This document shows positions 7,492 to 47,233 of a stretch of DNA of 64,000 nt, in pieces. The notes under the pieces are model-generated. The model searched no databases. It worked only from the letters and a program-made list of their open reading frames with translations, and was not told the origin of the DNA. Each line of letters opens with the position of its first letter. Within the stretch, counting starts at the first letter, position 1. Source of the stretch: an uncultured Eubacteriales bacterium (GTDB lineage: Bacteria > Bacillota_I > Bacilli_A > RFN20 > UBA1709). Position numbers and translations under genes: made by a program. Location: contig CAYIYR010000002.1 of assembly GCA_964367815.1 (NCBI GenBank), positions 13,903-77,902 on the forward strand, in the 5' to 3' direction.

Positions 7492-10260
7492 ATGAAGCTT
7501 TCAAATAGGGTAAATAATGATTTGTTAAGGAATGTACTTGATAAAGCAAATATTTATTATTGGCGTTACGATGTTCAAAAAGATATTTGTTATTCTGGAT
7601 ATCGTTCGATTCAAGAATTTCAGATGCCCGAAATAGTTGAAAATGCCCCTTTTTCCTTCGCTGAGCAGGGATTTATTCATCCCGATTCAATAGAAGATTA
7701 TCTCCAACTACACTTAGATATGAAGAAAGGATTACCATACTCAGAAAAGAATATTCGGATGAGTAATCGTTTTAATAATGCTTGTTGGTATCATGTAAAA
7801 ATAACTAATTCTTTTGATAAAGCAGGTAAACCGACTATTGCTTTAGCAATAGCTAATGAAATAAGTGACTATAAAAACCTAGAAGAATGTTTCAATTTTG
7901 CTATTCAACATGAGGGAATGAATATTTGGACCTATGATTTTGCTACCGATACGATTAGAAATGATAGCAACGGCGATTCTCACTTGCCTTATGGAACGAT
8001 TAGTAATGTCCCCGATTCAATTATTGATTCATGTACTATTCATCCTGATGATATTAAAGAATTTAGAGCGATGTTTAATCGACTGAAAACCAATGGAGAT
8101 AATTTAGGCTGCATAATTAGAGTATATAACAAAACAAATAGTGATTATGATTGGATGCACATTACTTATTCGCTTCTTTATGATCAACATGGAAAACCAA
8201 TCAAAGCGATGGGCACATCGAAAAATATTAATGAGAAAATGGAAGCCGAGGAGAAATCTCGAGTATTTCAAACCTATCAGAGAATGGCCCTCAGTAATAC
8301 ATTAATGTCTTGCCGCTTGAATCTTACAACTAATCGCTGCGGTGATTTTCAAAGTGCAAAGCGCCATTTTTTAGTAGTAACTAAAGATAGTACAGTTGAT
8401 AGTTTCTTTGAAGGCGTTTGTCAGCACATTAACGAAGATGATCTTGGTAAGTTTACAAAGATTTTTGGTCATAGGGTACTATTAAGCGCTTATTTCCGTG
8501 GAGAAACATCGGTGTCAACCAAATTCCGTTATCATCCAACCCGTAATTCTGTTAGATGGATAAAGATGACTTGTGAGATGACAGAGAACCCTAATACTCA
8601 TCAGATTGAAGGCATGCTATATGCCCATGACATTCATAAAGAGAAGACTTTACAGTTAGTCATTGAACAATTAGTTGGCGTTGATTATGAGTTTATTGCC
8701 ACTTTGAATTTTCTTAATGATGAAGTTACTTTATTTGCTAAAGATAAGAAAGATATTTGGTGCTCTCCTTCGGAGGAGGAACCATATTCTACATCTCACG
8801 ATGCGATAATCAAAGCTTATGTAAAGAGCGACTATCAAGAAGAAGCTGTTGCGAAAATGAGTGTTAAAGCAATCAAAAAAGCTTTAAAAGTATCAAAGGT
8901 TTATAATGTAACTTTCCCTGTAATTAACAGTGATGGGGAGGAAGAGTATAAGACTTGGCGTTATTTCTATGTTGATGATGATCATAAAGCATGTATTTTC
9001 ACTAGAACTGATGTTACTGATATCATTAATGAGCAGAAAAAGCAGCAAAGAAACCTTGAAGAGGCTTTAAAAGTTGCTGAAGAAGCTAACCTAGCAAAAA
9101 CAGATTTTCTCTCCAGAATGAGTCATGATATGCGCACTCCTATGAATGGAATCTTAGGATTGATTAATTTGAGCAATGAAGAACCAATGTCACCTTCTTT
9201 GAAGGATAATTTACAAAAGATGCAATCATCGGGAAAATATCTACTGAATATTATTAATGATATTCTGGATATGAGTAAGATTGAGAGTAATAATATTACT
9301 TTGAAAATCGAAACAGTCAATCCGAAAGAGTTTTTAGAGAGTTTGTTAGCGGCAATTAAACCAGCAATTGTTGAGAAAAACATCGATCTTCAAGTAAGTC
9401 TTGAACAAATAATGTTCGATTATATTAATATTGATCCAGTTAGAACCCAGCAGACTCTCTTAAATATTTTATCTAATGCCATTAAGTTTACCCCTAATGA
9501 TGGGAAGATAGAGTTTCTCGCTGAAAGAATGAGAATAGATGATGACAAATTTTACGATTGTATCACTATCAGAGATAATGGAGTAGGTATTTCGCCAAAG
9601 TTTTTGCCTAATATCTATGATTTGTTCGCTCAAGAAGATAATGAGATTAATACCCAATACGCAGGTACTGGATTAGGTATGCCAATTGTAAAGCGACTAG
9701 TGGAACTGATGAATGGAAGCATTGAGATAAAAAGTGAATTAAATAAGGGAACAGAAGTTAAAATCTTCTTACCGATTACTAAAGGCAAGTGTTTGTCTGA
9801 TGAAAGTCAAGAAACCTTCTGCGACCAAAAGTCCTTAAGGGGCCGGAAAATTCTTCTTTGTGAGGACAATCATCTTAATTCAGAGATTGCAAGGCGTTTA
9901 TTAGAAATGCAAGGCTGTGTGGTTGATATAGCAGCTAACGGAAAGATAGGTTTAGACAAATTTATTCAGTCGAAGAAGAATTATTATGATTTAATTTTGA
10001 TGGATATCAGAATGCCGGAGATGGATGGTATAGATGCCACAAAAGCAATTAGAGCTTTACCAAGATGTGATGCTAGGCAGATACCAATTATTGCAATGAC
10101 AGCAAACGCTTATTTGGAAGACAAATTAAAATCACAGGAAGCGGGAATGAACGCTCATATTGCGAAGCCTTTTGATCCGCAACAATTATTCAATGTTATC
10201 AATGAAATGATAGAGCTGAAAAACAAGGGTTTAATGAAAGTAGATTTTTGGTTAAAATAG
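7492..10260 (+). CDS. Cytoplasmic hybrid sensor histidine kinase with multiple PAS-like regions, HisKA, HATPase_c and a C-terminal receiver domain.
   Basis: H-box FLSRMSHDMRTPMNGILGL. ATPase G-boxes DNGVGI and GTGLGM. A receiver domain ILLCEDN...LILMDIRMPEMDG...K. No clear TM segments. Confidence 0.85.
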   Translation: MKLSNRVNNDLLRNVLDKANIYYWRYDVQKDICYSGYRSIQEFQMPEIVENAPFSFAEQGFIHPDSIEDYLQLHLDMKKGLPYSEKNIRMSNRFNNACWYHVKITNSFDKAGKPTIALAIANEISDYKNLEECFNFAIQHEGMNIWTYDFATDTIRNDSNGDSHLPYGTISNVPDSIIDSCTIHPDDIKEFRAMFNRLKTNGDNLGCIIRVYNKTNSDYDWMHITYSLLYDQHGKPIKAMGTSKNINEKMEAEEKSRVFQTYQRMALSNTLMSCRLNLTTNRCGDFQSAKRHFLVVTKDSTVDSFFEGVCQHINEDDLGKFTKIFGHRVLLSAYFRGETSVSTKFRYHPTRNSVRWIKMTCEMTENPNTHQIEGMLYAHDIHKEKTLQLVIEQLVGVDYEFIATLNFLNDEVTLFAKDKKDIWCSPSEEEPYSTSHDAIIKAYVKSDYQEEAVAKMSVKAIKKALKVSKVYNVTFPVINSDGEEEYKTWRYFYVDDDHKACIFTRTDVTDIINEQKKQQRNLEEALKVAEEANLAKTDFLSRMSHDMRTPMNGILGLINLSNEEPMSPSLKDNLQKMQSSGKYLLNIINDILDMSKIESNNITLKIETVNPKEFLESLLAAIKPAIVEKNIDLQVSLEQIMFDYINIDPVRTQQTLLNILSNAIKFTPNDGKIEFLAERMRIDDDKFYDCITIRDNGVGISPKFLPNIYDLFAQEDNEINTQYAGTGLGMPIVKRLVELMNGSIEIKSELNKGTEVKIFLPITKGKCLSDESQETFCDQKSLRGRKILLCEDNHLNSEIARRLLEMQGCVVDIAANGKIGLDKFIQSKKNYYDLILMDIRMPEMDGIDATKAIRALPRCDARQIPIIAMTANAYLEDKLKSQEAGMNAHIAKPFDPQQLFNVINEMIELKNKGLMKVDFWLK

Positions 10261-16471: not shown

Positions 16472-16480
16472 TTCAAAAAA

Positions 16481-16506
16481 GGCGTTCAAACAGCGCCTTT
16501 TTTATT
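16481..16506 (+). terminator. Rho-independent terminator
   Basis: GGCGT-tcaaaca-GCGCC followed by TTTTTTATTTTT. Confidence 0.75.
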
Positions 16507-16553
16507 TTTGTCATAAAACTCAGTAGCGATATATATTGTATATATATCACTTC

Positions 16554-16608: not shown

Positions 16609-18834
16609 GTGATATATATATTGCTCGGATTATCCGTTATCATCTCTGCGATAGTAATTTATTTATGTTTGTTTTGTAAAAAAATTCGTTTCCCTAAAAA
16701 GGTGAAACTTTCAATTGATGATGATAAAGATAACAAATTCTATGTTGTGATGCGTATCCTTTGTTGGATATTAATCGCAGCAGTCGCTGTTAGATTAGTG
16801 AATAACGATGTCATTGCTGCAATGGTAAAAAGAGACATCCTTTTTTCCACGTCTATGGCGACCATTGTTATAGTTATTCGCGCATTAACTATGGGTGCAG
16901 TTTTAGCTTGTGCGGTTGTCTCTTACTTTAATTATCGTAGCTTTCGGAATATCGTTGCGTTTTTTGTTCCGATTATCTACATTGTAAATATTCTATTTTT
17001 TACCCAAAATATCCAAGCGATGTTGGGAATTGTTAAGGTTCCAACGTATAATTATCGCGAGATTGTTTTTGCGATTGAATGCGTTTTAGGAGTAGTGATT
17101 GGGCTTTCTTTCTTGGTTAAGAAAATCAAAGATCGTGATTTCTCTAAGATGTATTTACAACTTCCAATCGCTCTATTTACCTTGATAGGCTTTTCCCTCG
17201 CCAATATGCATCCTTGCAGTATTGAGAATATGTGGGGAACTGATTGGTGTGGAGCCTCAACTAATTTCAATCGGATGCATATCTATATAATTATTGGAAT
17301 GCTGATTGTTACCGTCTTATTAATAGCCTTATTTAAGAAGTTGAAAAACGATGACATGACACACTGTTTCCTTTGCATCTGCTCGGTTTGTTGTGCCATG
17401 GTCTTTACTGCTAATCGCGACTATGCTAACTTTAAATTTTGGAATTTGCCCTTACATCTTTGTAATACGGGTGTCTTCTTGATGCTTTTTAGTTTTACTT
17501 GTCGTAATAAACCCATTTTCTATTTTAATTATTTAGTTAATGTGGTTGGAACTCTGTTTGCAATTATCTTGCCAGATTATGGGGCGGCCTTATTCTCAGA
17601 TCCAGGAATTCACTATTGGCATAACCACCTTTTGTTATTTATTCTACCATTGGTAGCGGTTGGTGCTGGCTATTATGAAAGACCGAAACTGAAGTATATT
17701 TATTATTCAATGGTTGTCTTTACAATCTATTTTCTTTTAGTTTGTTTTATTAATGCCTGGTTTAAGAATTTTGAACCAGGAGTAAACTACTTCTATTTAA
17801 ATGGCGATACTATTGTTAATCGATTTGTCTGGGCGCCGCATCTAAAAAATGATTTTATTTTTGTTTTCAAGATTCAGAATTGCACTTTCGAAATCTATTG
17901 GTTGTATTGGCTATTAACCTATGTCATTTATATTGGTTTTATTTTTGTCGCTTGGTTTGGCTTTGTCGCTTTATATAAGGTTAGTGATGGATATACAGAC
18001 TTGATTGTCCGCAATCACAAAATAGGTGAGGAACATAGTCATCTAATGCATGAGATGAAAGGGCGAAAACTTTCGGAGCCTCTGCATCCTGAGGACAAAG
18101 ATATGATAAAAATCAGCCATTTTACGAAGGTTTATAATGGTAGTAGCAATAAATCAGTTGATGATTTCTCTTTGCAGATACACGGTGGGGAAGTCTATGG
18201 TTTCCTCGGCCACAATGGTGCGGGAAAATCAACAACAATTAAATCTTTAGTGGGAATTCAAACAATTACTTCTGGAACCATGGAAGTATGTGGTTTTGAT
18301 GTTGAACGCCAACCTCTACAAGCGAAAAGAGTCATTGGCTATGTTTCAGATAATCATACTGTCTATGAAAACTTGACCGGCCGTGAGTATATCAATTATG
18401 TCGCTGATTTGTATTTGGTAGCACAAGCTGAAAGAGATGAGAGAATAACTAAATATGTGAAGATGTTCAACTTGGAAGATGCCATCGATCGAGAAATAAA
18501 GGGCTATTCCCATGGAATGAAGCAGAAAATTGTTGTCATAGCTTCATTGATTCATAATCCCAAAATTTGGATTCTTGATGAGCCACTTACCGGCTTAGAT
18601 CCTTCTAGTAGTTTCCAGATAAAATCAGTAATGAAAGAATATGCCAACAATGGCAACATTGTCTTTTTCAGCAGCCATGTTATCGAGGTTGTTGAGAAAA
18701 TCTGTGACAAGATCTGCATTATCAATCATGGTAAACTTGTGGGCGAATGGGCATTAAAAGATCTTTCGGCCCATGGGGAAACACTTCAAGATTTATATAT
18801 GAAGTATGTTTCGATAAATAAGGAGGATAACTAG
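16609..18834 (+). CDS. Fusion protein: N-terminal polytopic membrane domain (about 480 aa, LPLHLC motif, possibly YwaF/TMEM164-like) fused to a C-terminal ABC-2-type ATP-binding domain.
   Basis: GTG start after AAGAGG. At least 10 predicted TM segments. Walker A GHNGAGKST, signature variant YSHGMKQK, Walker B ILDEPLTGLDP. Confidence 0.7.
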   Translation: MIYILLGLSVIISAIVIYLCLFCKKIRFPKKVKLSIDDDKDNKFYVVMRILCWILIAAVAVRLVNNDVIAAMVKRDILFSTSMATIVIVIRALTMGAVLACAVVSYFNYRSFRNIVAFFVPIIYIVNILFFTQNIQAMLGIVKVPTYNYREIVFAIECVLGVVIGLSFLVKKIKDRDFSKMYLQLPIALFTLIGFSLANMHPCSIENMWGTDWCGASTNFNRMHIYIIIGMLIVTVLLIALFKKLKNDDMTHCFLCICSVCCAMVFTANRDYANFKFWNLPLHLCNTGVFLMLFSFTCRNKPIFYFNYLVNVVGTLFAIILPDYGAALFSDPGIHYWHNHLLLFILPLVAVGAGYYERPKLKYIYYSMVVFTIYFLLVCFINAWFKNFEPGVNYFYLNGDTIVNRFVWAPHLKNDFIFVFKIQNCTFEIYWLYWLLTYVIYIGFIFVAWFGFVALYKVSDGYTDLIVRNHKIGEEHSHLMHEMKGRKLSEPLHPEDKDMIKISHFTKVYNGSSNKSVDDFSLQIHGGEVYGFLGHNGAGKSTTIKSLVGIQTITSGTMEVCGFDVERQPLQAKRVIGYVSDNHTVYENLTGREYINYVADLYLVAQAERDERITKYVKMFNLEDAIDREIKGYSHGMKQKIVVIASLIHNPKIWILDEPLTGLDPSSSFQIKSVMKEYANNGNIVFFSSHVIEVVEKICDKICIINHGKLVGEWALKDLSAHGETLQDLYMKYVSINKEDN

Positions 18835-18835
18835 T

Positions 18836-20437
18836 ATGTTTGAAAGAATTAACACATTAGTCAAACTCCAGCTTGGTCATCGCTACCGGATCAAAAAGAG
18901 TGGCGATCAAATATGGAAATTAATCTTTAAAATTGCGGGTTTCTTCATCGTAGGAGCTGCCGCTTATTTAGTTATGTTTGCGATCAAGAAATTCGTTTAT
19001 CTAACAATTACGAATTCAATGATTCTTTTCATTATTTTCTTCACGCAGGTTTTAACTCTTTTAGCGAATGCCGCTTCCTTAACTAAATCTCTTTATGGTA
19101 GTAAAGATAATGCGATTCTTCTTTCTTTACCAGCTCATAATAGTGAAATCTATATTTCCAAATTAATCGTCTTTTATCTACTAGAACTCTATGGTAATGC
19201 GATGTTTCTCTTACCAATTCTAGCGGGTTATGGACTATTTTCTGGGCAGGGTTTATGGTATTATTTTGCTGCTGTTATTATTACCTTTTTATTACCAATA
19301 GTGTCCGTTCTTGCGGGAGCTTTACTATCCATACCGCTATCTTATGTTGCGAAATTGTTTAGAAAGTTTTCCATCTTATATGGTATATTTACATTAGGAA
19401 TTGTCGGCTTGGTCTTCTATTTTGTAACTAAACTAGTAGCTCTAATTCCTGTTCCGTTCCGCTTAGTTGCACTTTATAACTCATTGATGAACAAAATACT
19501 AGTGCTTGTTGAAACCGCTAATAGTTATGCTCTGTTCTACAAGTGGTTTTCTAATTTCCTTTTCAACATTCATGCGGGAATGAATATTGTCTTTATAATT
19601 CTATTAATTATCGGTTTAATTATTGCTAATATGTTATTGTCACAACCGTTATTCTTTAAGCTATCTAGTCATAGTGCGGAAGATGCAGTTCAAAAGAAGC
19701 ATAAAGGAATCAATAAAAAATCAAAGAGCACGTTCTTGGCCTTCTATAAAAAAGAGGTCATTATCTCCATTCGCTGTTTTGGCAAAGTATTAGAAAACTA
19801 TCTAATGATTATCTGCATGCCGATTATTCTCTATCTTATTAACAGTATATTTTTAGCACTGAATTTAAGCACGTTTGGTCAAACGCTTATTTTTGGAATT
19901 AATATTCTAATCGGACTAATGATGATGATTGCTAGCAACACCGCTAGTTCAATGTCACTGAGTGAAGAAGGCAGCGAGTTTGTGCTGCTGAAAACCTCAC
20001 CCGCAAATACGCAAAAAATAGCATGGGCTAAGATCGCTAACAACATTCTTATCTCCACGTTTTTACTGATTGTTTCTTTATTTATTCTAGCTTTTATGAA
20101 AGTGATGCCAATTAGATCGGTTGTAGTTTTAGGCATTATCTTCTTCTTGGTAAATTGCGGACATATTATGTGGTCCTTCCAATTGGATTTAAGGAATCCG
20201 CAGATTAAAGATGTGGCATTAACAGGAACAGTTAGTAATCAAGTTAATGTTACGAGTTGCTTGACAATCGGAACACTCATCTCTGTTGTTTTTGGTGCTT
20301 TAGCGGTCCTGCTTTCTTTTGGACTGGGCAGTGCGGCCTATTTACAAATGATAGATTTAGCAGTTTTATTTGTGGTTTGGAGATTCATTGTTTTCCGAAT
20401 CAACTTAAAAGTCTATTTCTATGATATAGAGTTATAG
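18836..20437 (+). CDS. Large polytopic membrane protein, the putative permease partner of the upstream ABC ATPase.
   Basis: Its ATG lies 2 nt after the upstream stop, indicating coupling. 533 aa with about 12 hydrophobic segments. Confidence 0.55.
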   Translation: MFERINTLVKLQLGHRYRIKKSGDQIWKLIFKIAGFFIVGAAAYLVMFAIKKFVYLTITNSMILFIIFFTQVLTLLANAASLTKSLYGSKDNAILLSLPAHNSEIYISKLIVFYLLELYGNAMFLLPILAGYGLFSGQGLWYYFAAVIITFLLPIVSVLAGALLSIPLSYVAKLFRKFSILYGIFTLGIVGLVFYFVTKLVALIPVPFRLVALYNSLMNKILVLVETANSYALFYKWFSNFLFNIHAGMNIVFIILLIIGLIIANMLLSQPLFFKLSSHSAEDAVQKKHKGINKKSKSTFLAFYKKEVIISIRCFGKVLENYLMIICMPIILYLINSIFLALNLSTFGQTLIFGINILIGLMMMIASNTASSMSLSEEGSEFVLLKTSPANTQKIAWAKIANNILISTFLLIVSLFILAFMKVMPIRSVVVLGIIFFLVNCGHIMWSFQLDLRNPQIKDVALTGTVSNQVNVTSCLTIGTLISVVFGALAVLLSFGLGSAAYLQMIDLAVLFVVWRFIVFRINLKVYFYDIEL

Positions 20438-20448
20438 GAGGAGAAGGT

Positions 20449-20931
20449 ATGAATAGAAAAACTATTATCTTATTAATTATTGCCTTCTCAATCATCTTTG
20501 TAGCGTTGGTTGGCTTCTATGGGGTGAAACCCTTCAATGATAATCCAGTTCAAGCGACTTATATTAAGTGGCAGAATGAAGAATTATCCATTGATGACAA
20601 CGGCAAGGTTTATTATTATTTACCCTGTGTCGAAGAGAATGAAACAAAGAGAGTTTATTTAGCAAACTTTGTAGTTTTGGACTCAGCAGCAACGCTGGGA
20701 AAAGAAACTTTGAAGTATTCGATTATCTACGATAAAGAGGAAGAAAAAGGTCGCTTAGAATTAACCGAAACCGGAACTTTTGCGGGTTGGTTAACCATCA
20801 AAGGTCAAACTACGGCGACAATTACTGTGTCCACTACAGATGGTAGTGGCATCGATGCCCGTTTATTTATTCGAAACAAGACAGCTTGTGTGATTCCGGG
20901 TGAAGTAATCGGTGGCGATATATTTAAATAG
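20449..20931 (+). CDS. Small membrane-anchored extracytoplasmic protein (N-terminal TM anchor plus a beta-rich domain).
   Basis: SD AGGAGGAG. N-terminal LLIIAFSIIFVALVGF, followed by about 130 hydrophilic residues. Confidence 0.5.
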   Translation: MNRKTIILLIIAFSIIFVALVGFYGVKPFNDNPVQATYIKWQNEELSIDDNGKVYYYLPCVEENETKRVYLANFVVLDSAATLGKETLKYSIIYDKEEEKGRLELTETGTFAGWLTIKGQTTATITVSTTDGSGIDARLFIRNKTACVIPGEVIGGDIFK

Positions 20932-20990
20932 TTTATAAAACTGTTAATTCAGTTTTGTAATATAAGCAGACAAAAAGAAGGAGGTTTAAT

Positions 20991-23900
20991 ATGAAAAAAC
21001 CATTTAAGAAAATAGCGTTTTTTCTGAGCATTTTGTTTCTATGCTTAGGGGTAGGCACATTAACATCATGTAATGAACAAGCAGCTGTCAAAGTTAAGTT
21101 CTATGACTCTTTGACGACTACCGAAACAACAGAAAAATTGTTATTTCCTGGATCTTATGATCTAGCGAAACTGGCTTCTGAAGGTCTTGATGACTTTGTT
21201 CCAGAAAAGAAGGGATATACCTTCGTAAAATGGACACTTGATAAAAGTGGGACAAGCGACTTTGATCCCAAAAAATATACAAGTGGAACAGAAACCGTCG
21301 TGAATGTCTATGCCCAATGGGAGGAGAGAGCAAAGATTGCTTACTATAACGGTAGCAATCCCATTGGAACCTATTATTTTGATGAACTAAAGACTGGCAC
21401 CCAAACAGTTGCGGCGCCCACAAGGACTGGATACACCTTTGTGAGATGGACAACTGATTCGGCCAATACAACAGAATTTGTTGCTTCAACCTTTAGTTAT
21501 CCAACTGATAAGAAAACCGTTAATGTCTACGCTCAATGGGAGAAAGTAGTTACCATTATTTATATGAATGGCAACACCGAAGCAGGAAGAGTATTATTAT
21601 CAGCTCTAAAAGAGGGTACTTCTACTGCACCAACAGTTACAAAAGTTGGTTTCAATTTTGATAAGTGGACAACTGATACTGAAGGGACAACCACATTTAA
21701 TCCCGCAACTTTAGTTACTGATAAAGATACAATAACTGTTTATGCGAAATTTAATGCGAAAGCCAAAGTGACTTATTATGATGCCTCGGTAGTTCTTTAT
21801 GATTATTATCTTGAAGACATCACCACATCGACTCCCCAACCAACCCCAACAAAAGTCGGCTATACATTTGTCGGCTGGGTCGATGGCAATAATGCCGCTT
21901 TTACAGTCAATTTAAGTGCAACTGCTAACCAAGTAGCTTATGCAAAGTGGGAGCAGAGAGCTCTAGTTAATTTCTATAATGGTTCAACAAAAGTTGAAAC
22001 CAAGTATTTAGATGAACTTAAAGCCGGAACAACCACACAACCAGTTGTTACCAAAACGGGTTATTCCTTCCTCGAATGGAATCTATCCGAGAATGGTGCG
22101 GGCGTAACCTTTAATCCAAATACTTATAATGGAAGTTCCAAAACTATTAATGTTTATGCTCAGTGGGAAAGAGTAGTAACTGTTATCTATATGAATGGTT
22201 CTACCGAAGTCGGAAGAGTTCTGCTATCTGCCTTAAAAGATGGCACATTACCAGCACCAACCGCTACCAAGGCTCACTATACGTTCAAGAACTGGACAAC
22301 TGATAGTGCGGGAACAACGCCATTTGTGGTAGCTAATTGCCCAATGACAAACGCCACATTCACTGTCTATGCTCAATGGACTGAGAATGTCAAAGTCATC
22401 TATATGAGCGATAATTCCATCTATCAAACTTATTATTTAGATGAATTATCAGCTGGATTTACTAATCCTGTCATTAATAAAACTGGATATACCTTTGTCA
22501 AATGGGAAAACAGTGAGAATGAAGAATTTGTTTTAAATCGTGAAGCGACTGTTAACCAGATTGCTTACGCCAAATGGGAACAAAGAGCGGTTGTTAAATA
22601 TTATGATGGCAACACTCTTGTTGAAACGAAGTATCTCGATGAATTGAAAGCGGGAACAACCACTCAACCATCAGTCACGAAGACTGGTTATACCTTTGTT
22701 GAATGGAATACTTCATCCGATGGAGAAGGAAATACCTTTAATTATGTGGCCTATGCCGGAACAGAAAAGACCATCAATGTTTATGCTAAATGGGATTTAA
22801 TTGTTACAGTTGTCTATATGAATGGTGCAAGTGAAGTCAATAGAATTCTTCTCTCAGCTTTGAGAAGCGGAACTTCTGAACCAGTAGTTACTAAGACCGG
22901 TTATTACTTCAGTGCTTGGACAACTGATCTTGAAGGTAACACTCCATTCGTTTATGGAAGTTATTTTGCTAGTACTGCCACAGTTACTGTCTATGCTCAA
23001 TGGACAGAAAAATTAGTTGTTACTTACTACAATGGTAATGATGTTTATGATACCAAATATCTAGAGGATATTACCAATTCTTATGTTCCAGCCGAGCCTA
23101 CTAAAACGGGTTATGACTTCCAAGGATGGGTTACCACTGATGATGGTTCAACAAGTTTTGTTCTTGACGTCGCTGCTTCAAGCAACATTAATGCTTACGC
23201 CAAATGGGAACAAAAAGTAACTGTTAGATATTATGATGGCGAAACCCTAGTTGCTTCTAGATATTTAGATGAACTAAAAGCAGATATTACTTCTGCTCCA
23301 GCTGCTCCATCTAAGACTGGTTATACCTTTATAAGATGGACTGTCAATGGCGAAACATTCAATTATGATACATATGTCAGTGCTGTAAAGACAGTTAATG
23401 TTAATACTGAATATGAGTTAATTGTTACAGTAATCTATATGAATGGTTCAAGTGAAACAGGTAGAGTTCTATTATCAGCTTTGAAAGCTGGGACTTCAAC
23501 TGCTCCAACTGCGACCAAACAACATTATACCTTCCAAGGATGGAAGACTGATGTTCTAGGGACAATTCCATTTGTCGTTTCTAACTGTCCAATGGACAAT
23601 GAAACAGTTACTGTTTATGCAAGTTGGACAGAAAATTCCAAGGTAACATACTATGTAGGCAATGAATTGTACGATAGTAAATATCTAGATGAAATTGCCA
23701 ATAGTTATGTTCCAACAACACCAACTGCTTCTGGTAAGTTCTTCAATACTTGGGTAACTACCGCTGAAGGTAGCACCGCCTTTGTTTTGGACTGTGCTTC
23801 TACAACAGACTTAGTTGCTTATGCAACTTGGTACAATGAGCCAGAAATTACTGGACTTAACTACGATGCTGCTAATGGCCGAATTGAATGGAATGCTTTG

Positions 23901-26522
23901 ATCGATGCGACTTATCAGATTAAGATTGATGCTGGTGAACCAGTTTCAACTGTTACAGTCGAAGGTGGAAAAGTTCATTACTCCTTAGATTCAAGTTTGG
24001 ACATTGGACAGCATACCGCGTATGTAATGATCACTTATCACGGACATAGCACAGTTTGGACAAGTTTATCATTCACAAAGCAGATTGTTTTATCAATTGG
24101 TACACCAAGTTTTAATGCGGAAACTCGTGTAATATCTTGGGATGAGCCTGCTGGTGATGGTTATTATTATGATGTTTATTGGAATGGCATTGTTGGTGTT
24201 ACTCCAGTAAGAGTCAATACTAATAGTTATACTATTCCAGCAAGCATCGTTACTGGTTCTTATGTTATCTATGTAAAGGCTTATAAAGAAGTCAATTCTG
24301 TTATTATTAGTTCTAATACTGATAGTGCTTCAGTAACAGTAGTTTCAGTTGAAAGATACGATGAAACATTAAAATTATTTATTAATGCCGATGATAGATA
24401 TGTTCTCATGACCGGTGTCGATTACACATTTGCTACAGTATCTTCCATTACTGAAAACACCGAATATTTCACTGTTACAGGTAACAAAATCACGATTAAG
24501 AACAATCTTGCCAATGGTACAATATTTGATGTAGTAACTAACTTGGGAACCATTCATGCTTGTGCAGAAAATGTTATCTTGAGCATATCACCAGATGATA
24601 ATTGGACCACTTATCAAAACAACGCGAAATTAAGCAATGTTAATAGTAATTCAAATCAAACTGGTTTTATGAATATTACTAATTTATATGAAGTTGGTAC
24701 AGGAGATGACAATTATCGCTTAGAGTTGAATATCACTAGTAGTAGTGCATTCGCCGCAACTTGTTTCCCTCTAGATGTTAGCGGAACAGTTGGTTTAAGC
24801 AGTAATATTGGTTACTATTTATCACTGAAGAAGGTTGGAGAATACTACTGCATTGATTGGACAGAGCATGCTTCTGAATTAGCAGATGGAACGGTTGTTT
24901 CATTAACTATTAAGGCACATTATGTAACTGGTGCACAGAAGGAAATACCTTTCTATACTTACACATTTAAAGTAAACAAAGGTGTTAACGTTTATACTGA
25001 TGCTGAATTAAGAGAAAATTTCAGTGATTTAGATGTTAAGTCAATTAATCTTCATAGCAATATTATCTTGAGTCAAGCCGAGTTAACAGAGCTAGGAATA
25101 GTCTACAGTAATCATACTGATACCACTGTAGAGAATCCGAAAAACAGTATTGAAAATAGTATTTATTTCCGTTCTTCCGCTGTGGATGATGATTTCAGAC
25201 TTAATGGAAACTATTTCCAAATTGATGCTTCAAACGTTAATAAACTAATTGGTAAAGCTAATTCTACTTTTGGCACCTACAAGATGTATTATGTGTTTGT
25301 TGCTGTCTTAGGAATTCAAGGTGGCGGAAGTGATTCAGTCAATTATGAAGAATTAGGTGGCGCCGTAACTGTGAGTAAAAAGCAGAATGCCTCTATAACA
25401 AATATTAAAGTAAAAGGTAATGCAACGCTTACTACAACTGAGGGTTCATTCTTAACCGATTCAGGGGCAATTGATGGCTTTATTAGCCAAACCTATGCAA
25501 CAACCTTAGATAACGTTGTAATCTACAATTGTAATGAAGGAATCAAGCTCGAATCACAAAATAATGGGACTCACTTTATCAGAAACAATCTACATATTGT
25601 AAAGAATACTGCAATTAGCCAATGTTGGAATAGTAGTACTTACTTATTTACAGATGGCGAAATCAGATTTGAAGATAGCCATTTCTATAAGTCATATAGC
25701 ACATCTTCAACTCTAGCTATGTCAGAGTCTAGCAATAGAAATATTGTTTTCACTGATGTTGATAATGGCATTTATGCAAGAGCATATCCATGCATCACAT
25801 TAGATAATATGATTTTTGATAACTGGGCATATGGTGATGAATTCTACTATCAAGCTGTCGGGTTTAGCTCATCATTAACAAGTTATAAGCAACAAATGGA
25901 TACCAATGTTAAAGCACTGACACAAGATGGCTATACCTTAGTCCGTACTAATCAAGATTCAACAACTCAAATCAATATGGAACTTATGATTAATGGTAAG
26001 AATGATAGTATGTACGAAATAAGATATGTCAAAGCTGATGGAACAGTTTATAGTTCATTGAGATCTTGTAAGCAAGTTGGCGATATAGACTGTCCAAATG
26101 ATCCTAGAGCCGGAGCTGACCCATATACTGTTTTATGGCCAGTAGGATCAACAAGTAGTTCAGAAAACTTTGGTGCATTAGCGACACAACTTACTAATGA
26201 ACTCACCGCTTTAGGTGCTCAATTATCAGGCAATTCTGAATATGCTACCGCTTATACTAATATGGAAGGTAAATTCTTGCTGGATTCCGTGTTTGGTGAT
26301 AATTTGATGACTTATGCACTAACTTTATTAGGACAAACTGGTGATGAAACAGCAACAAGTAACTTACGTACATCTACTCTTTACCAATACGCATTTGCTC
26401 AAGCATACAATGATGCTAACAGTGGCAGAATCCACATGGAAGCAACCTTGCCAAATGCCGGTCTTGGAAATGGTAATGATGGTATTTCAACAATACTTGT
26501 TGAAGCCATTAAAGCATCTTAA
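20991..26522 (+). CDS. Giant cell-surface lipoprotein of 1843 aa. It has 13 tandem Listeria-Bacteroides (Flg_new)-type repeats, two FN3-like modules and a C-terminal beta-helix-like region.
   Basis: Signal peptide with the lipobox LTSC. Repeats of about 72-88 aa end in the pattern KTGYTF..W......F.........V(Y)A.WE. The segment NIKVKGNATL...VVIYNCNEGIKL...IRNNLHIVKNTAIS is reminiscent of parallel beta-helix repeats. Confidence 0.8.
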   Translation: MKKPFKKIAFFLSILFLCLGVGTLTSCNEQAAVKVKFYDSLTTTETTEKLLFPGSYDLAKLASEGLDDFVPEKKGYTFVKWTLDKSGTSDFDPKKYTSGTETVVNVYAQWEERAKIAYYNGSNPIGTYYFDELKTGTQTVAAPTRTGYTFVRWTTDSANTTEFVASTFSYPTDKKTVNVYAQWEKVVTIIYMNGNTEAGRVLLSALKEGTSTAPTVTKVGFNFDKWTTDTEGTTTFNPATLVTDKDTITVYAKFNAKAKVTYYDASVVLYDYYLEDITTSTPQPTPTKVGYTFVGWVDGNNAAFTVNLSATANQVAYAKWEQRALVNFYNGSTKVETKYLDELKAGTTTQPVVTKTGYSFLEWNLSENGAGVTFNPNTYNGSSKTINVYAQWERVVTVIYMNGSTEVGRVLLSALKDGTLPAPTATKAHYTFKNWTTDSAGTTPFVVANCPMTNATFTVYAQWTENVKVIYMSDNSIYQTYYLDELSAGFTNPVINKTGYTFVKWENSENEEFVLNREATVNQIAYAKWEQRAVVKYYDGNTLVETKYLDELKAGTTTQPSVTKTGYTFVEWNTSSDGEGNTFNYVAYAGTEKTINVYAKWDLIVTVVYMNGASEVNRILLSALRSGTSEPVVTKTGYYFSAWTTDLEGNTPFVYGSYFASTATVTVYAQWTEKLVVTYYNGNDVYDTKYLEDITNSYVPAEPTKTGYDFQGWVTTDDGSTSFVLDVAASSNINAYAKWEQKVTVRYYDGETLVASRYLDELKADITSAPAAPSKTGYTFIRWTVNGETFNYDTYVSAVKTVNVNTEYELIVTVIYMNGSSETGRVLLSALKAGTSTAPTATKQHYTFQGWKTDVLGTIPFVVSNCPMDNETVTVYASWTENSKVTYYVGNELYDSKYLDEIANSYVPTTPTASGKFFNTWVTTAEGSTAFVLDCASTTDLVAYATWYNEPEITGLNYDAANGRIEWNALIDATYQIKIDAGEPVSTVTVEGGKVHYSLDSSLDIGQHTAYVMITYHGHSTVWTSLSFTKQIVLSIGTPSFNAETRVISWDEPAGDGYYYDVYWNGIVGVTPVRVNTNSYTIPASIVTGSYVIYVKAYKEVNSVIISSNTDSASVTVVSVERYDETLKLFINADDRYVLMTGVDYTFATVSSITENTEYFTVTGNKITIKNNLANGTIFDVVTNLGTIHACAENVILSISPDDNWTTYQNNAKLSNVNSNSNQTGFMNITNLYEVGTGDDNYRLELNITSSSAFAATCFPLDVSGTVGLSSNIGYYLSLKKVGEYYCIDWTEHASELADGTVVSLTIKAHYVTGAQKEIPFYTYTFKVNKGVNVYTDAELRENFSDLDVKSINLHSNIILSQAELTELGIVYSNHTDTTVENPKNSIENSIYFRSSAVDDDFRLNGNYFQIDASNVNKLIGKANSTFGTYKMYYVFVAVLGIQGGGSDSVNYEELGGAVTVSKKQNASITNIKVKGNATLTTTEGSFLTDSGAIDGFISQTYATTLDNVVIYNCNEGIKLESQNNGTHFIRNNLHIVKNTAISQCWNSSTYLFTDGEIRFEDSHFYKSYSTSSTLAMSESSNRNIVFTDVDNGIYARAYPCITLDNMIFDNWAYGDEFYYQAVGFSSSLTSYKQQMDTNVKALTQDGYTLVRTNQDSTTQINMELMINGKNDSMYEIRYVKADGTVYSSLRSCKQVGDIDCPNDPRAGADPYTVLWPVGSTSSSENFGALATQLTNELTALGAQLSGNSEYATAYTNMEGKFLLDSVFGDNLMTYALTLLGQTGDETATSNLRTSTLYQYAFAQAYNDANSGRIHMEATLPNAGLGNGNDGISTILVEAIKAS
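21072..23850 (+). repeat. Coding tandem repeat array: 13 Flg_new-like units with a higher-order 3-4-unit periodicity.
   Basis: Units R5 and R8 are near-identical at the protein level (AKWEQRA.V..Y.G.T.VETKYLDELKAGTTTQP.VTKTGY.F.EWN) but only about 75% identical at the DNA level. Confidence 0.8.
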
Positions 26523-26546
26523 GATTAGAAATTCTATTTAAAAAGG

Positions 26547-26578
26547 GGTACTGTTAATAACAGTGCCTCTTTTCTTTG
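26547..26578 (+). terminator. Rho-independent terminator of the operon
   Basis: GGTACTGTT-aat-AACAGTGCC followed by TCTTTTCTTT. Confidence 0.7.
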
Positions 26579-27054: not shown

Positions 27055-28011
27055 GTGGATGTAGTGAAAAGAAAAGTTGGATTAGTATTAGGTGGTGGCG
27101 GAGCAAAAGGTGCCTATCAGATTGGTGTCTATAAAGCGCTACGTGAATATAAGCAGATAGAACAAATCGTGGCTTTCTCTGGAACGTCAATAGGGGCTCT
27201 TAATTTGGTTTTGTTATCTTCTAAGGAAATTGATAAGGCTGAGCGAATTTGGTTAAATTTGAGCCGAAAAAACATCTTAACGTTGAAAAACTGGAAAGAA
27301 TATTTATCTTTCAAGAATTTTAGTGTTCTCTCAAGAAGGGGAATGTTAGAAATCTTTAGTAGTGATATAGATTTTGATAAAGTCTCTAAATGTGAATATC
27401 CATTATATGTTGGCGCGACAAATACAATTGAAGACTGTGGAGAGATATTTAAGTTGAATGGAATGGAATCTAATAAGATTATTGATTGTCTTTCAGCTTC
27501 AAGTGCAATCCCAAAGATATTCGCACAAGTATTTATTAATGGCAAAAAGTATTGTGATGGCTTTCGTTATTTAAATGTTCCCATTCAATGCCTCATTGAA
27601 GAGAAGTGTAACTTCCTATTCACCATTCCCTTAAGTCCTTATCTAGCACCTAAAGATGGTGATTTCCCAGACACCACGATTATCGACTTTAATGAGAAGA
27701 TTTTCGCTAATCTCAAAACTTGGGAAGGGACACTTGGTTTTGATGCCAAGATAGTTGAGGAGAGAATGAATCTTGGTTATAAGAATGCCATGAAATTATT
27801 GGAATTCTTAAGAAAAGAAGGAGTCATTACTGTCACCTTCAAGGATAAAGTCCGTTATTTCTTCGGCAAGATCACTGGTCGGAACAAGAAATTCAAAAAG
27901 TACTATTCTATGGAAGACGTGAATATAATTAAGGAACTACCAAAACCTAATGATGAGGTAGAACAAACCATAGAAGAGGGATCGACCACAGATGGGACAA
28001 AGACTAGTTGA
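27055..28011 (+). CDS. Patatin-like phospholipase
   Basis: GGGGAKG oxyanion motif and GTSIG nucleophile elbow. GTG start. Confidence 0.8.
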   Translation: MDVVKRKVGLVLGGGGAKGAYQIGVYKALREYKQIEQIVAFSGTSIGALNLVLLSSKEIDKAERIWLNLSRKNILTLKNWKEYLSFKNFSVLSRRGMLEIFSSDIDFDKVSKCEYPLYVGATNTIEDCGEIFKLNGMESNKIIDCLSASSAIPKIFAQVFINGKKYCDGFRYLNVPIQCLIEEKCNFLFTIPLSPYLAPKDGDFPDTTIIDFNEKIFANLKTWEGTLGFDAKIVEERMNLGYKNAMKLLEFLRKEGVITVTFKDKVRYFFGKITGRNKKFKKYYSMEDVNIIKELPKPNDEVEQTIEEGSTTDGTKTS

Positions 28012-28810
28012 GTTATTGAAGTATCTTTTGTTAGGCTTTGTGCAGGGCGCTTGTGAGATATTACCTATCTCATCAAGTGGGCATTTAATAATTTTCCAAT
28101 ATATTATGGGGAGGGAAGAAGTAAATCTTGCCTTCTCTGTTTTTTTGCATTTTGGTAGTTTGATAGCGGTATCCATTTTTCTACGCAAGCGAATAGTTGA
28201 ATTGTTAAGTGGAACGTATAAATATCTTATAAAGAAAGATCGGAATTATTATAATCAGGCTCATTATTGCTTGCTACTTGTTTTATCAACAATTGTTACT
28301 GGAATAATTGGTCTAGTATTTGAGGATAAAGTTCAACAGATAAGTACATTAGGCTTTGTGGGATGCGCACTAATTATTAATGGAATATGTTTGTTAATTG
28401 TTAATCGTATAAGTAACAAAGCAACTAAAACTATCAACAATATGCCTTGGTGGAAAGCCGTATTGATTGGACTGGGTCAAGGGGTCGGAATACTTCCTGG
28501 TATTTCTCGTAGTGGAGCGACACTTGGAACATCAATTGCGGTTGGAGTCAAAAAAGAAGTCGCTGCTGAGTATGCATTTCTTCTTTTTATTCCCGTAGAA
28601 TTTGGAGCATTAATCATCAGCATTGATGATTTAATGACAACTGAAAAGTCTCTGATTATCCCATATATTTTAGGAATGGTAATCGCCGCAATTACTACAT
28701 ACTTTGCGCTCGTTTTATTTTTGGGAGTAATTAAAAAGAAGAAGATTAATTACTTCTCCTTTTACTCGTTAATTGTTGGTGTTATTTGCACTCTGGTTTA
28801 TTTTTTTTAA
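27992..28810 (+). CDS. uppP: Undecaprenyl-diphosphatase
   Basis: EILPISSSGHL and GISRSGAT motifs typical of BacA/UppP. Confidence 0.9.
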   Translation: MGQRLVELLKYLLLGFVQGACEILPISSSGHLIIFQYIMGREEVNLAFSVFLHFGSLIAVSIFLRKRIVELLSGTYKYLIKKDRNYYNQAHYCLLLVLSTIVTGIIGLVFEDKVQQISTLGFVGCALIINGICLLIVNRISNKATKTINNMPWWKAVLIGLGQGVGILPGISRSGATLGTSIAVGVKKEVAAEYAFLLFIPVEFGALIISIDDLMTTEKSLIIPYILGMVIAAITTYFALVLFLGVIKKKKINYFSFYSLIVGVICTLVYFF

Positions 28811-46492: not shown

Positions 46493-47233
46493 ATGTTTTT
46501 TGATTTATCATATATTTCTAGGGGTGATATGGTGGATGAAGTATATCAGTATCAAATAGTTGGTCAAGGAGTTGAAATCTTATTTCTTCCTGGCTGGGGC
46601 AATGCGAAAGAAACTTGGTTGCCTCTAGTTAGTCTATTAAAGAATAAGTATCAATGTATAATGCTAGATCTGCCAGGATTCGGTAAAGCTAATAAGCCCG
46701 ACTATCCTTTCGCACCCCAAGACTATGCCACTTTTGTAAAGAATTTCTTAATTAATAACAATTTAAATCCCCAGGTATTAATTGGTCATTCCTTTGGGGG
46801 AAAGGTAATTACCGAGATGGTATTAGGAGGGTATGATGCGAAAGTAATTTATGTCAGTGCATCAATAATTAAACCCAAGACAAGCTTATCAAAGCTTATT
46901 AAGAAAGTGCGGGTTAAGATTCTAAAAAAACTTAGAATAGAATACCAACAATTAGGCAGCAAGGATTATCGTGACAGTCAAGGTATTATGCGAGCTGTCC
47001 TAATCAAAGCCACCCATACTTATTATGACCATGAACTGACAAGAATAGCCGTGCCAGTTTTAGTATGCTTTGGATTGCATGACACAGAGACACCATTGTG
47101 GATGGGAAAAAAGATTTCCAAATTAATTAAGCATTCGCAATTTAAATTACTTGATGGTGGCCATTTTGCTCATCTTGAACAACCATATATCTTTGCCACC
47201 TATGTCGATAAATTCATTATGGAGGGAAAATAA
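46493..47233 (+). CDS. Alpha/beta hydrolase
   Basis: GHSFGG nucleophile elbow. LPGWG oxyanion region. The start may be the internal ATG at 46529. Confidence 0.75.
   Translation: MFFDLSYISRGDMVDEVYQYQIVGQGVEILFLPGWGNAKETWLPLVSLLKNKYQCIMLDLPGFGKANKPDYPFAPQDYATFVKNFLINNNLNPQVLIGHSFGGKVITEMVLGGYDAKVIYVSASIIKPKTSLSKLIKKVRVKILKKLRIEYQQLGSKDYRDSQGIMRAVLIKATHTYYDHELTRIAVPVLVCFGLHDTETPLWMGKKISKLIKHSQFKLLDGGHFAHLEQPYIFATYVDKFIMEGK

Follow-up and report, generated by a model that had tools for sequence, protein, structure and literature searches.

The closest described counterparts of the protein analyzed here are fibrillar adhesins with Flg_new stalks and beta-solenoid heads, in which a repeat stalk is combined with a terminal right-handed beta-helix (Monzon & Bateman, PMC9210967). 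That survey of fibrillar adhesins counts Flg_new among the stalk domains and beta-solenoid heads among the adhesive domains. The class of beta-solenoid heads includes PF20585 (Pectate_lyase_5) and the binding region of the Lactobacillus reuteri SRRP (PDB 5NXK/5NY0). Right-handed beta-helices are also found in polysaccharide-acting enzymes, of which we compared the A-module of the mannuronan C5-epimerase AlgE4 (2PYG), the fucoidan lyase FdlA (7XZ7), Vibrio RbmB (9OZD), pectate lyases, and phage tailspike depolymerases. A further group of known proteins is relevant to the genes upstream. The ATGY superfamily (AIG1/TMEM164/GPC1/YwaF/YpjA) comprises enzymes of acyl transfer or hydrolysis with six transmembrane segments, which carry a nucleophile in TM2 and a histidine in TM4 (bioRxiv 10.1101/2022.07.06.498872), and its Bacillus member LhaT (YpjA) N-acetylates lipoproteins (PMC12345273).

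Here, we describe a lipoprotein that is fibrillar adhesin-like or enzyme-like and whose gene has a new genomic setting. It is encoded in a stretch of 64,000 nucleotides from an uncultured Eubacteriales bacterium (assembly GCA_964367815.1, contig CAYIYR010000002.1), hereafter the window, whose relevant features are collected in Table 1. Like the fibrillar adhesins, the window protein has a stalk that passes the Flg_new HMM, and two members of its family pass PF20585. However, its predicted anchor is an N-terminal lipid and not a C-terminal LPXTG motif, so that the head lies at the C terminus and the polarity is reversed relative to LPXTG adhesins. The window protein itself also differs in giving no match to PF20585 at E ≤ 1 and in having a conserved alpha/beta region of ~225 aa after the head. 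Moreover, its gene is locked in an ABC cassette, whereas no such feature accompanies SRRPs (SecA2/Y2) or sortase-anchored adhesins. The stalk-and-head design is already known, and the window protein adds a lipid-anchored example of reversed polarity.

Table 1 Features of the lipoprotein gene and the genes upstream of it (window positions; aa, residues of the encoded protein)
Feature	Positions	Strand	Basis
Upstream boundary: ychF terminator-like hairpin (16475-16503) and best promoter-like site (16508-16537)	16475..16537	+	consensus scans only
Gene 1, 741 aa: TMEM164/ATGY-type polytopic membrane domain (Pfam aa 221-404) and DrrA/GldA-class ABC ATPase (aa ~500-741)	16609..18834	+	PF14808, PF00005
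Gene 2, 533 aa: polytopic membrane protein, presumed ABC permease	18836..20437	+	position, L001 counterpart
Gene 3, 160 aa: N-terminal TM anchor and ~130-aa extracellular part	20449..20931	+	single hydrophobic segment, aa 5-23
Ribosome-binding site AAGGAGG, 6 nt 5' of the lipoprotein ATG	20978..20984	+	direct sequence reading
Type II (lipoprotein) signal peptide, aa 1-27, lipobox L-T-S-C; Cys27, predicted lipidated residue	20991..21071	+	sequence
Leader Flg_new unit U1, aa 28-113 (86 aa including an insertion)	21072..21329	+	unit alignment
Super-repeat block 1: A1, B1, C1, aa 114-323	21330..21959	+	unit identities, DNA spacing
Super-repeat block 2: A2, B2, C2, aa 324-532	21960..22586	+	unit identities, DNA spacing
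Super-repeat block 3: A3, B3, C3, aa 533-742	22587..23216	+	unit identities, DNA spacing
Super-repeat block 4: A4, B4, C4, aa 743-949	23217..23837	+	unit identities, DNA spacing
Two FN3-like beta-sandwich modules, aa 950-1036 and 1037-1119	23838..24347	+	predicted fold, low-confidence model
Pre-helix beta-rich region, aa 1120-1318	24348..24944	+	A1/A4 alignments, family HMM
Right-handed parallel beta-helix head, aa ~1319-1617, starting at KVNKGVNVYTDAELRENF	24945..25841	+	predicted fold
C-terminal alpha/beta region, aa 1618-1843: conserved K1633 and N1662, DPR...PVG motif, poorly modelled helical tail	25842..26519	+	alignments, AF2
Intrinsic-terminator-like 15-pair hairpin and T-run, 19 nt past the lipoprotein stop codon	26541..26573	+	sequence scan

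Positions 20,991 to 26,522 of the forward strand form a single intact ORF of 1843 aa, exactly as an initial sequence-only reading had placed it. The ORF contains 33 TGG codons and no in-frame TGA, and code 11 therefore applies. A lipoprotein signal was defined by a charged n-region, a hydrophobic h-region, and the motif [LVI][ASTVI][GAS]C within the first ~35 residues, and the N terminus shows all of these, with MKKPFKK followed by the hydrophobic stretch IAFFLSILFLCLGVGT and by L-T-S-C27. The segment at aa 8-26 is the sole hydrophobic segment of the whole protein. This type II signal peptide, with Cys27 as the predicted site of lipidation, agrees with the lipid anchor that had been proposed from the LTSC lipobox. 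Likewise, the homologues have lipoboxes ending in ..AC, ..SC, or ..GC, and a lipobox signal peptide is present at the start of 19 of the 20 full-length homologues (protein matches P0001-P0025). A scan of the entire protein for an LPXTG-type motif ([LIN][PA]x[TG][GANDS]) found none, as the sequence-only reading had stated, and a sortase substrate was rejected on this ground. An internalin was rejected as well. The window protein resembles the Listeria internalins InlA, InlB, and InlH in its Flg_new/B-repeat modules and gives partial matches to their NCBIfam models; however, it scores far below the cut-off (42 versus 1600 bits), lacks LRRs and an LPXTG or GW anchor, and has a different head.

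The stalk is formed mainly by Flg_new repeats. PF09479 (Flg_new) matched 12 stretches of the protein (E = 7e-53, 177 bits against a cut-off of 27 bits), TIGR02543 similarly matched 12 (E = 3e-60, 200 bits against 20.95), and an HMM made from the protein's own units recovered 13. The count of 13 Flg_new-type units given earlier was thus reproduced, and the concern raised with it, that the repeats might not be of this type by HMM, is dispelled by the PF09479 score. The array is followed by two modules that were previously described as FN3-like. The fold comparison lends this description tentative support on a low-confidence model, the region having been modelled essentially without alignment depth, whereas sequence HMMs do not: fn3 (PF00041) matched neither the whole protein at E ≤ 1 nor the isolated modules at E ≤ 10, and the sole Pfam match to the isolated modules was Big_13 (E = 0.096). 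Among the sequences compared, the only other protein with these modules is the orthologue from an Acholeplasmatales MAG (L002). The pre-helix region is conserved throughout the family, with the consensus ..YVFLTG.TY.F.. / ..P.Y..., and has a pLDDT of ~64-82 over aa 1130-1250 in the AF2 model. The window protein therefore combines the lipobox with 13 Flg_new units, two FN3-like modules, and a beta-rich region, the stalk and anchor expected of a fibrillar adhesin.

The AF2 model is middling overall (pLDDT 63.6, pTM 0.64), and its last ~125 residues are poorly modelled. The predicted head superposes on known right-handed parallel beta-helices, which confirms at the level of the model a pectin-lyase-type fold. 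The predicted structure and the fold search thus bear out the beta-helix-like C-terminal domain of the sequence-only reading, and its caveat that this region might show neither a beta-helix nor another catalytic fold no longer applies. The top Foldseek match of the head was the binding region of the L. reuteri SRRP adhesin, with a weak best E value of 2.3e-3. By sequence, no Pfam beta-helix or adhesive-domain model matched the window protein and no other Pfam model matched aa 950-1843; none of the recognized adhesive-domain HMMs matched the head. When PF20585, which has a gathering score of 24.3 bits, was applied to the homologues, P0006 (25.0 bits) and P0009 (26.4 bits) passed and P0018 (19.8 bits) failed, and the matches of P0006 and P0009 fall at the start of the domain that they share with the window protein. 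These scores point to a distant, superfamily-level relationship between the head family and PF20585.

The head family is rare. An exhaustive HMMER search of 1.84 billion proteins returned 24 representatives, and the family has no Pfam model. The exact window protein occurs once in a collection of 15 billion proteins, as a singleton cluster, and a scan of a genome collection using the head sequence by itself gave no close relative, which indicates that the species of the window lies outside the GTDB representatives. A 16-sequence alignment of the head (A1) contains no conserved 7-10-mer, and the C-terminal tail (aa 1720-1843) has detectable similarity only to L002 and P0005. Particular residues of the head are conserved across the family, namely R1394, D1400, D1412, D1589, and E1617 together with an Asn ladder. 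These five residues and K1633 are conserved in 36-43 of 44 homologues, whose sequences otherwise share ~20% identity.

On these features, we favor, with some but by no means full confidence, a lipid-held stalk-and-head protein on the outer face of the membrane, with a head that most likely binds glycans and with a probable coupling to the ABC/ATGY machine encoded upstream. The protein would be exported via Sec, modified with diacylglyceryl at Cys27, and cleaved by signal peptidase II, after which the N-terminal lipid would hold it on the outer face of the cytoplasmic membrane. The rod begins seven residues past Cys27, runs through the 13 Flg_new units, the two FN3-like modules, and the further beta-rich region, and ends in the right-handed parallel beta-helix with its conserved C-terminal alpha/beta cap. 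Assuming Ig-sized modules, we estimate that the rod probably lifts the head several tens of nanometres off the membrane. As a committed guess, the head would bind a polysaccharide or glycoconjugate, like the pectate-lyase-like domains of serine-rich-repeat and other fibrillar adhesins, although catalysis on this glycan is possible.

A catalytic role is the core of a second explanation, which we consider rather unlikely: a surface-tethered "fibrillar enzyme" whose head is a polysaccharide lyase, hydrolase, or epimerase that cuts or remodels a polymer. Its target would be a glycan from the diet or the host, or else a polymer that the cell itself exports; the ABC-2-type exporter encoded upstream would deliver this polymer or a lipid-linked precursor. 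The six charged residues, conserved in 44 distant homologues, are more in keeping with a catalytic or fixed-ligand site than with an adhesin that evolves fast, the ATPase encoded upstream belongs to the DrrA/GldA/NodI class used by ABC-2 exporters, and putative enzymes with Flg_new stalks have been described (PMC9210967). However, neither the window protein nor the family profile matched any catalytic Pfam or NCBIfam family or any PDB sequence. The head is only 9-13% identical to the beta-helix polysaccharide enzymes compared, with no catalytic motif mapped onto it, and those enzymes, unlike the window protein, have neither an Flg_new stalk nor a lipid anchor. Catalytic families of this fold carry characteristic groove residues, for example Asp triads, Ca2+-binding Asp residues together with an Arg/Lys base, or the YG(F/I)DPH(D/E) motif of AlgE. 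Moreover, the motif SGGAAIH..D, common to most of the family, is replaced by STSSTLAMSE in the window protein, and no glycan-synthesis or sugar-uptake genes lie in or adjoining the cassette. The list of fold matches is also biased, because beta-helices in the PDB are mostly enzymes. A recently acquired phage depolymerase head was rejected, since tblastn with the head found no match in a phage collection.

Four genes form a conserved unit (16,609-26,522) that ends with the lipoprotein gene, a genomic context that the sequence-only reading had missed. Gene 1 scored 67 bits with PF14808 (E = 2e-18; cut-off 25 bits) and 92.6 bits with PF00005, its best NCBIfam matches being drrA and GldA, each under its cut-off. 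Cys285 (PLHLCNT) and His340 (WxNH) are invariant in 31 of 31 homologues and lie in successive conserved membrane motifs, as in ATGY proteins. By HMM score and by this Cys/His pair, gene 1 is a predicted member of the ATGY superfamily. It differs from the known members in that the domain sits within a larger membrane region of ~480 aa and is fused to an ABC ATPase; in addition, the genes after it invariably encode a permease, a small anchored protein, and a giant lipoprotein. Gene 2 comes after the fusion gene in every complete locus. The window protein of gene 2 has no Pfam match and no relative in the PDB, and its L001 counterpart (31% identity) gives weak matches to 12TM_1 and ABC_tran_2. 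In the place of gene 3, all complete loci encode a protein of 130-178 aa, whose sequence is weakly conserved (phmmer E = 1e-34 to L002 and 1e-13 to L003, with most others below threshold).

The four-gene order of the window recurs in 24 loci for which the ABC fusion served as the seed and, in the reverse direction, in 3 of 3 for which the head domain served as the seed; the lipoprotein gene is strictly co-inherited with the three genes upstream. The strongest terminators in our scan flank the unit and none lies inside it. The hairpin on the ychF side has 12 pairs and a T-run, and the promoter-like site after it matches the sigma-70 consensus at 10 of 12 positions. The lipoprotein gene is thus probably co-transcribed with the other three. 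Owing to this probable co-transcription and the strict co-inheritance, the display or activity of the stalk-and-head protein is probably coupled to the ABC system with its ATGY-type fusion. Two other assignments of the cassette were rejected: an ABC importer with the lipoprotein as its substrate-binding protein, because the ATPase falls in the exporter/ABC-2 class and the lipoprotein is unlike a substrate-binding protein, and a known defence system, because PADLOC returned only generic P-loop similarities of the ATPase.

The obligate synteny in both directions would also suit a dedicated lipoprotein-handling machine with the large lipoprotein as its client, a possibility that we regard as quite unlikely. 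The Cys/His domain of the ATGY protein would alter the N-terminal lipid of the client, for example by N-acylation or transacylation, with the ABC ATPase and the permease driving the extraction, positioning, or release of the client. The invariant Cys285 and His340 fit the nucleophile/His dyad of ATGY enzymes (bioRxiv 10.1101/2022.07.06.498872), LhaT provides a precedent for an ATGY member that N-acetylates lipoprotein N termini in Bacillus (PMC12345273), and all full-length family members checked are lipoproteins despite their differing stalks. However, this evidence is wholly circumstantial. ATGY enzymes have many lipid substrates, LhaT is from another branch (DUF1405) and has no fused ABC ATPase, and no conserved residues past the lipobox Cys mark a dedicated client. 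Furthermore, the protein encoded downstream in the Izemoplasma variant (L027) lacks a lipobox and has a TM anchor that looks uncleaved. A broader proposal, which we consider unlikely, is that the cassette constitutes a previously undescribed envelope module, complete in itself, in uncultured Acholeplasmatales, Bacilli, and Clostridia. In this module, a catalytically competent ATGY-ABC fusion would act with the permease and the small anchored protein specifically to mature, lipid-remodel, or operate a single giant stalked beta-helix lipoprotein. If this were true, the four-gene module would be a dedicated, ATP-coupled system of lipoprotein acylation or handling.

The window protein defines a rare, unannotated family of beta-helix heads with no relative in Pfam or the PDB by sequence. 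Of greater use is the genomic context: a strictly conserved four-gene unit couples the lipoprotein to an ABC transporter whose ATPase bears a TMEM164/ATGY-type domain, in which the Cys/His dyad is intact. Neither an ATGY-ABC fusion nor such a cassette was found in the literature searched, and the pairing of the lipoprotein with an ATGY-ABC transporter appears to be undescribed. Bacterial ATGY members are almost uncharacterized, and LhaT, the sole characterized one found in that literature, modifies lipoprotein N termini. The cassette offers a concrete candidate pair of client and enzyme in uncultured Firmicutes and Mollicutes-like bacteria associated with the gut, where N-modification and display of lipoproteins bear on recognition by TLR2.

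The Flg_new array itself consists of the leader U1 followed by units of types A, B, and C in this order, four times over, with a block period of 621-630 nt (about 627 nt) in the DNA. U1 is the unit best conserved relative to the Acholeplasmatales orthologue (66% identity), and A4 lacks the terminal YAxW motif. Protein identity is 46-67% among A units, 51-76% among B units, and 31-55% among C units, compared with 26-51% across types (mean 50.8% for same-type versus 35.6% for cross-type pairs), and the A/B/C partition was the maximum among 20000 label shuffles. The earlier proposal of three or four sub-types in a fixed order, arising by duplication of a multi-unit block, can thus be sharpened to three types repeated four times plus a distinct leader. 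At the DNA level, same-type units are 47-69% identical, with a longest exact run of 23 nt. Nucleotide identity exceeds amino-acid identity in most same-type pairs, and the fraction of conserved residues with identical codons is 0.32-0.71, compared with 0.46 expected for saturated sites. Synonymous sites between the units look saturated, which points to old duplications, and the age of the duplications in turn explains the scarcity of recombination substrate. The sequence-only reading had suggested that units conserved in protein but diverged in DNA damp recombination; the DNA divergence was found, whereas the protein conservation (31-76%) had been overstated, and the low recombination potential would be a by-product of age and need not have been selected.

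Large repetitive genes are prone to misassembly, and this, together with the single occurrence of the exact protein, raises the idea of a decaying or chance ORF or a repeat-assembly artefact with no function. This idea is extremely improbable. The frame is intact over 5.5 kb between a strong ribosome-binding site and a terminator, more than 40 homologues occur in conserved synteny, and the Acholeplasmatales orthologue is full-length and 35-40% identical. The artefact was rejected because the units, with no more than 23 identical nucleotides in a row, are too diverged for assembly collapse or expansion. When eight homologues were scanned against Pfam, six had Flg_new arrays and two had Big_3 domains. 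The number of stalk units across the homologues ranges from 0 to at least 13, a variability that is typical of stalks.

The giant lipoprotein gene is intact, and as its reading frame holds no in-frame TGA and 33 TGG codons, it is read with the standard bacterial code. The N terminus runs from MKKPFKK through a hydrophobic core to L-T-S-C27, as predicted for a textbook type II signal peptide; the protein has no other hydrophobic segment, and no LPXTG-like motif occurs anywhere in its 1843 residues. Both features agree with a sequence-only reading, which had proposed a lipid anchor at an LTSC lipobox and no LPXTG. The precursor would be exported by Sec and processed by Lgt and Lsp at Cys27. An antisense frame of 123 aa (21118-21489, - strand) lies within the first repeats of the gene; it has no supporting evidence, and chance is the most likely source of such a frame in a gene of this length.

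Features of the four-gene cassette and of the lipoprotein it encodes (window positions unless marked aa)
Feature	Position	Strand	Details
Terminator-like hairpin, upstream flank	16475-16503	+	scan
Promoter-like site, best in region	16508-16537		scan
Gene 1, TMEM164-type polytopic membrane domain fused to ABC ATPase	16609-18834	+	741 aa; PF14808 67 bits; ATPase of DrrA/GldA/NodI class
Gene 2, polytopic membrane protein (presumed permease)	18836-20437	+	533 aa
Gene 3, single N-terminal anchor	20449-20931	+	160 aa
Ribosome-binding sequence AAGGAGG	6 nt 5' of lipoprotein ATG	+	read in sequence
Lipoprotein gene (gene 4)	20991..26522	+	1843 aa; single uninterrupted ORF
Hairpin and T-run	26541-26573	+	15 pairs; 3' of lipoprotein stop codon
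Beta-rich region	aa 1120-1318		family-conserved; between FN3-like modules and helix
Alpha/beta region	aa 1618-1843		conserved; after helix; GxE(A/F)(W/Y)F helix and DPR...PVG motif

The Flg_new model of Pfam (PF09479) matched 12 stretches of the lipoprotein with 177 bits, where the cut-off is 27, and the NCBIfam model TIGR02543 gave 200 bits; scores so far past the cut-off settle that the repeats are of the Flg_new type. When cut at the recurrent [VA]YA[QK]W motif, the array (aa 28-949) resolves into 13 units, a longer leader unit U1 (86 aa) followed by four consecutive triplets of unit types A, B, and C. At the protein level, units of the same type are 46-67% (A), 51-76% (B), and 31-55% (C) identical, compared with 26-51% across types, and the difference between the means (50.8% versus 35.6%) was reached among 20000 label shuffles by the observed partition only. 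DNA repeat families spaced 621-630 nt, the length of one triplet, are an independent sign of this period, and the suggested duplication of a multi-unit block with sub-types in fixed order is thus borne out.

At the DNA level, same-type units are 47-69% identical with a longest exact match of 23 nt, and conserved amino acids share the same codon in 0.32-0.71 of cases, where 0.46 is expected under synonymous saturation. Judged by this divergence, the duplications are old, and the array DNA is almost devoid of substrate for homologous recombination. The earlier idea of units conserved in protein and diverged in DNA, which damps recombination, therefore stands for the DNA; "conserved" was too generous for the protein, and the array seems to be stable because it is old, with adaptation undemonstrated.

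The exact lipoprotein is a singleton in a collection of 15 billion proteins, and the genome-collection scan found no genome closely related to that of the window. Its nearest orthologue, in the cassette locus L002 of an uncultured Acholeplasmatales MAG, has 1310 aa and is 35-40% identical end to end. As this orthologue carries only six units, namely U1 (66% identical), a C-type last unit, and four that cannot be sorted into A, B, or C, the fourfold triplet amplification is, by this comparison, specific to the lineage of the window. Family members that share the C-terminal head carry anywhere from 0 to at least 13 Flg-like units, and in some Big_3 domains take their place. In two MAGs (L005:8406-11917 and L024:11305-12182), the contig ends before the fourth cassette gene does, within a Flg-like array that in L005 already counts 13 units; long arrays are thus not unique to the window and tend to break assemblies. 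In addition, a second giant surface protein lies 6.5 kb downstream of the homologous cassette of L001 (L001:20440-23990, GCA_963593855.1). Its 2042 aa extend past the end of the fetched locus and combine Flg_new with LRR domains, so in cassette-bearing genomes several proteins share the Flg_new stalk and differ in their heads.

No sequence match to aa 950-1843 was present in Pfam, NCBIfam, or PDB. An exhaustive HMMER scan with aa 1120-1843 over 1.84 billion representatives recovered 24 proteins at E<=1e-3, the query included, and this number defines the family as a rare one; negatives of the word-indexed protein search are unreliable for such repeat-rich, low-identity sequences, as it missed the query's own database entry and returned zero for a 16-sequence family alignment. 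A lipobox signal peptide begins 19 of the 20 full-length, Met-starting hits, and a Pfam scan of eight homologues placed Flg_new arrays in six and Big_3 domains in two. By its predicted fold the head is a beta-helix, as had been suspected; Foldseek ranked the binding region of SRRP first, although weakly (best E 2.3e-3). Two homologues, P0006 and P0009, pass the gathering cut-off of PF20585 ("putative pectate lyase-like adhesive domain") with matches where the shared domain begins; the window protein does not reach it.

The fold of the head does not decide between an enzyme and an adhesin. In a 44-sequence alignment of about 20% mean identity, the residues kept in 36-44 sequences are an Asn/Gly ladder and R1394, D1400, D1412, D1589, E1617, and K1633, all of them found in the window protein. 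That charged residues are so widely kept speaks for a fixed ligand or chemistry. Two observations speak against catalysis: in the window protein another sequence stands in place of the SGGAAIH..D motif that most family members share, and no signature of a catalytic family could be detected. On balance, we favour a glycan-binding head, with catalysis possible; binding stands at roughly even odds, and an enzyme is given less weight.

The three genes directly upstream of the lipoprotein gene lie on the same strand with gaps of 1, 11, and 59 nt along the cassette, and the two strongest + strand terminator-like hairpins of the region flank exactly this four-gene block. The homologue P0001, distant at 27% identity in the head, has the same three genes in front of it. 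The fusion protein and permease there are 41% and 31% identical to those of the window, and the small protein, though barely alignable, agrees in size and topology. When GTDB species representatives were scanned with the fusion protein as seed, 35 loci were returned; with L001 added, 24 loci lay on contigs long enough to show the whole unit. The order in all 24 is fusion protein, permease, 130-160-aa protein, and 796-1759-aa protein, the last matching the head-domain HMM at E 1e-88 to 1e-181, with a lipobox recognised in 21 of 24 ORFs as called. Likewise, reverse seeding with the head hits P0011, P0024, and P0016 found the same upstream genes in 3/3 and differing flanking genes. On these sequences the four-gene synteny is obligate, in MAGs labelled Acholeplasmatales, Bacilli, Clostridia/Eubacteriales, Candidatus Scatosoma, and Christensenella. 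A variant cassette occurs in a Candidatus Izemoplasma acidinucleici MAG (L027:9845-17072), where PIQLCN replaces PLHLCN in the fusion protein, no separate small protein is present, and the permease is followed by a 1128-aa protein with an uncleaved-looking TM anchor; this protein is unrelated to the head family and has neither Flg-like units nor a head-domain HMM match.

TMEM164, YwaF, and YpjA are members of the ATGY superfamily, whose 6-TM enzymes carry out acyl transfer or hydrolysis; its defining feature is a Cys/Ser/Thr nucleophile on TM2 together with an invariant His on TM4 (bioRxiv 10.1101/2022.07.06.498872). In agreement with this dyad, Cys285 (PLHLCNT; window 17461-17463) and His340 (WxNH; window 17626-17628) are invariant in 31/31 fusion proteins, and the ATGY domain is therefore probably active. 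A bacterial member, LhaT (YpjA), works at the outer face of the membrane in Bacillus, where it N-acetylates lipoprotein N termini (PMC12345273). Given this precedent and the intact dyad, it is conceivable that the cassette is a dedicated system for lipid remodelling or handling of its lipoprotein; alternatively, the system might export or acyl-modify a lipid-linked polymer that is the target of the beta-helix. The lipoprotein is, in any event, probably coupled in function to the ABC/ATGY machine. The membrane parts have no PDB sequence relatives, PADLOC reported only generic ATPase similarity for the cassette, and the literature searched contained no description of an ATGY-ABC ATPase fusion or of the four-gene cassette.

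The window protein shares its architecture with fibrillar adhesins or "fibrillar enzymes" with a Flg_new stalk (PMC9210967), and its head is similar to the pectate-lyase-like adhesive domains found in SRRPs. Four features set it apart: an N-terminal lipid anchor, which reverses its polarity, a head outside every curated family, the conserved C-terminal extension after the head, and the invariable linkage of its gene to an ATGY-ABC system. By typical module sizes, about 17 small beta modules would make up a rod that holds the presumed glycan-binding head several tens of nanometres away from the membrane. While the protein by itself is ordinary for a gut-associated monoderm, the cassette opens bacterial ATGY enzymes, and the way uncultured lineages handle lipoproteins, to testing.

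Elsewhere in the window, an ordinary-looking hybrid sensor kinase of 922 aa (7492-10260) combines PAS, HisKA, and HATPase_c domains with a C-terminal receiver; we draw no link to the cassette. The window also encodes a BacA/UppP undecaprenyl-diphosphatase (27992-28810) and a Mur-ligase-family protein (47233-48747). Acholeplasmatales, the label of the nearest cassette homologue and here the sole guide to the taxonomy of the window, are usually thought of as wall-less; with these two genes, the organism may retain polyprenol-dependent envelope synthesis.
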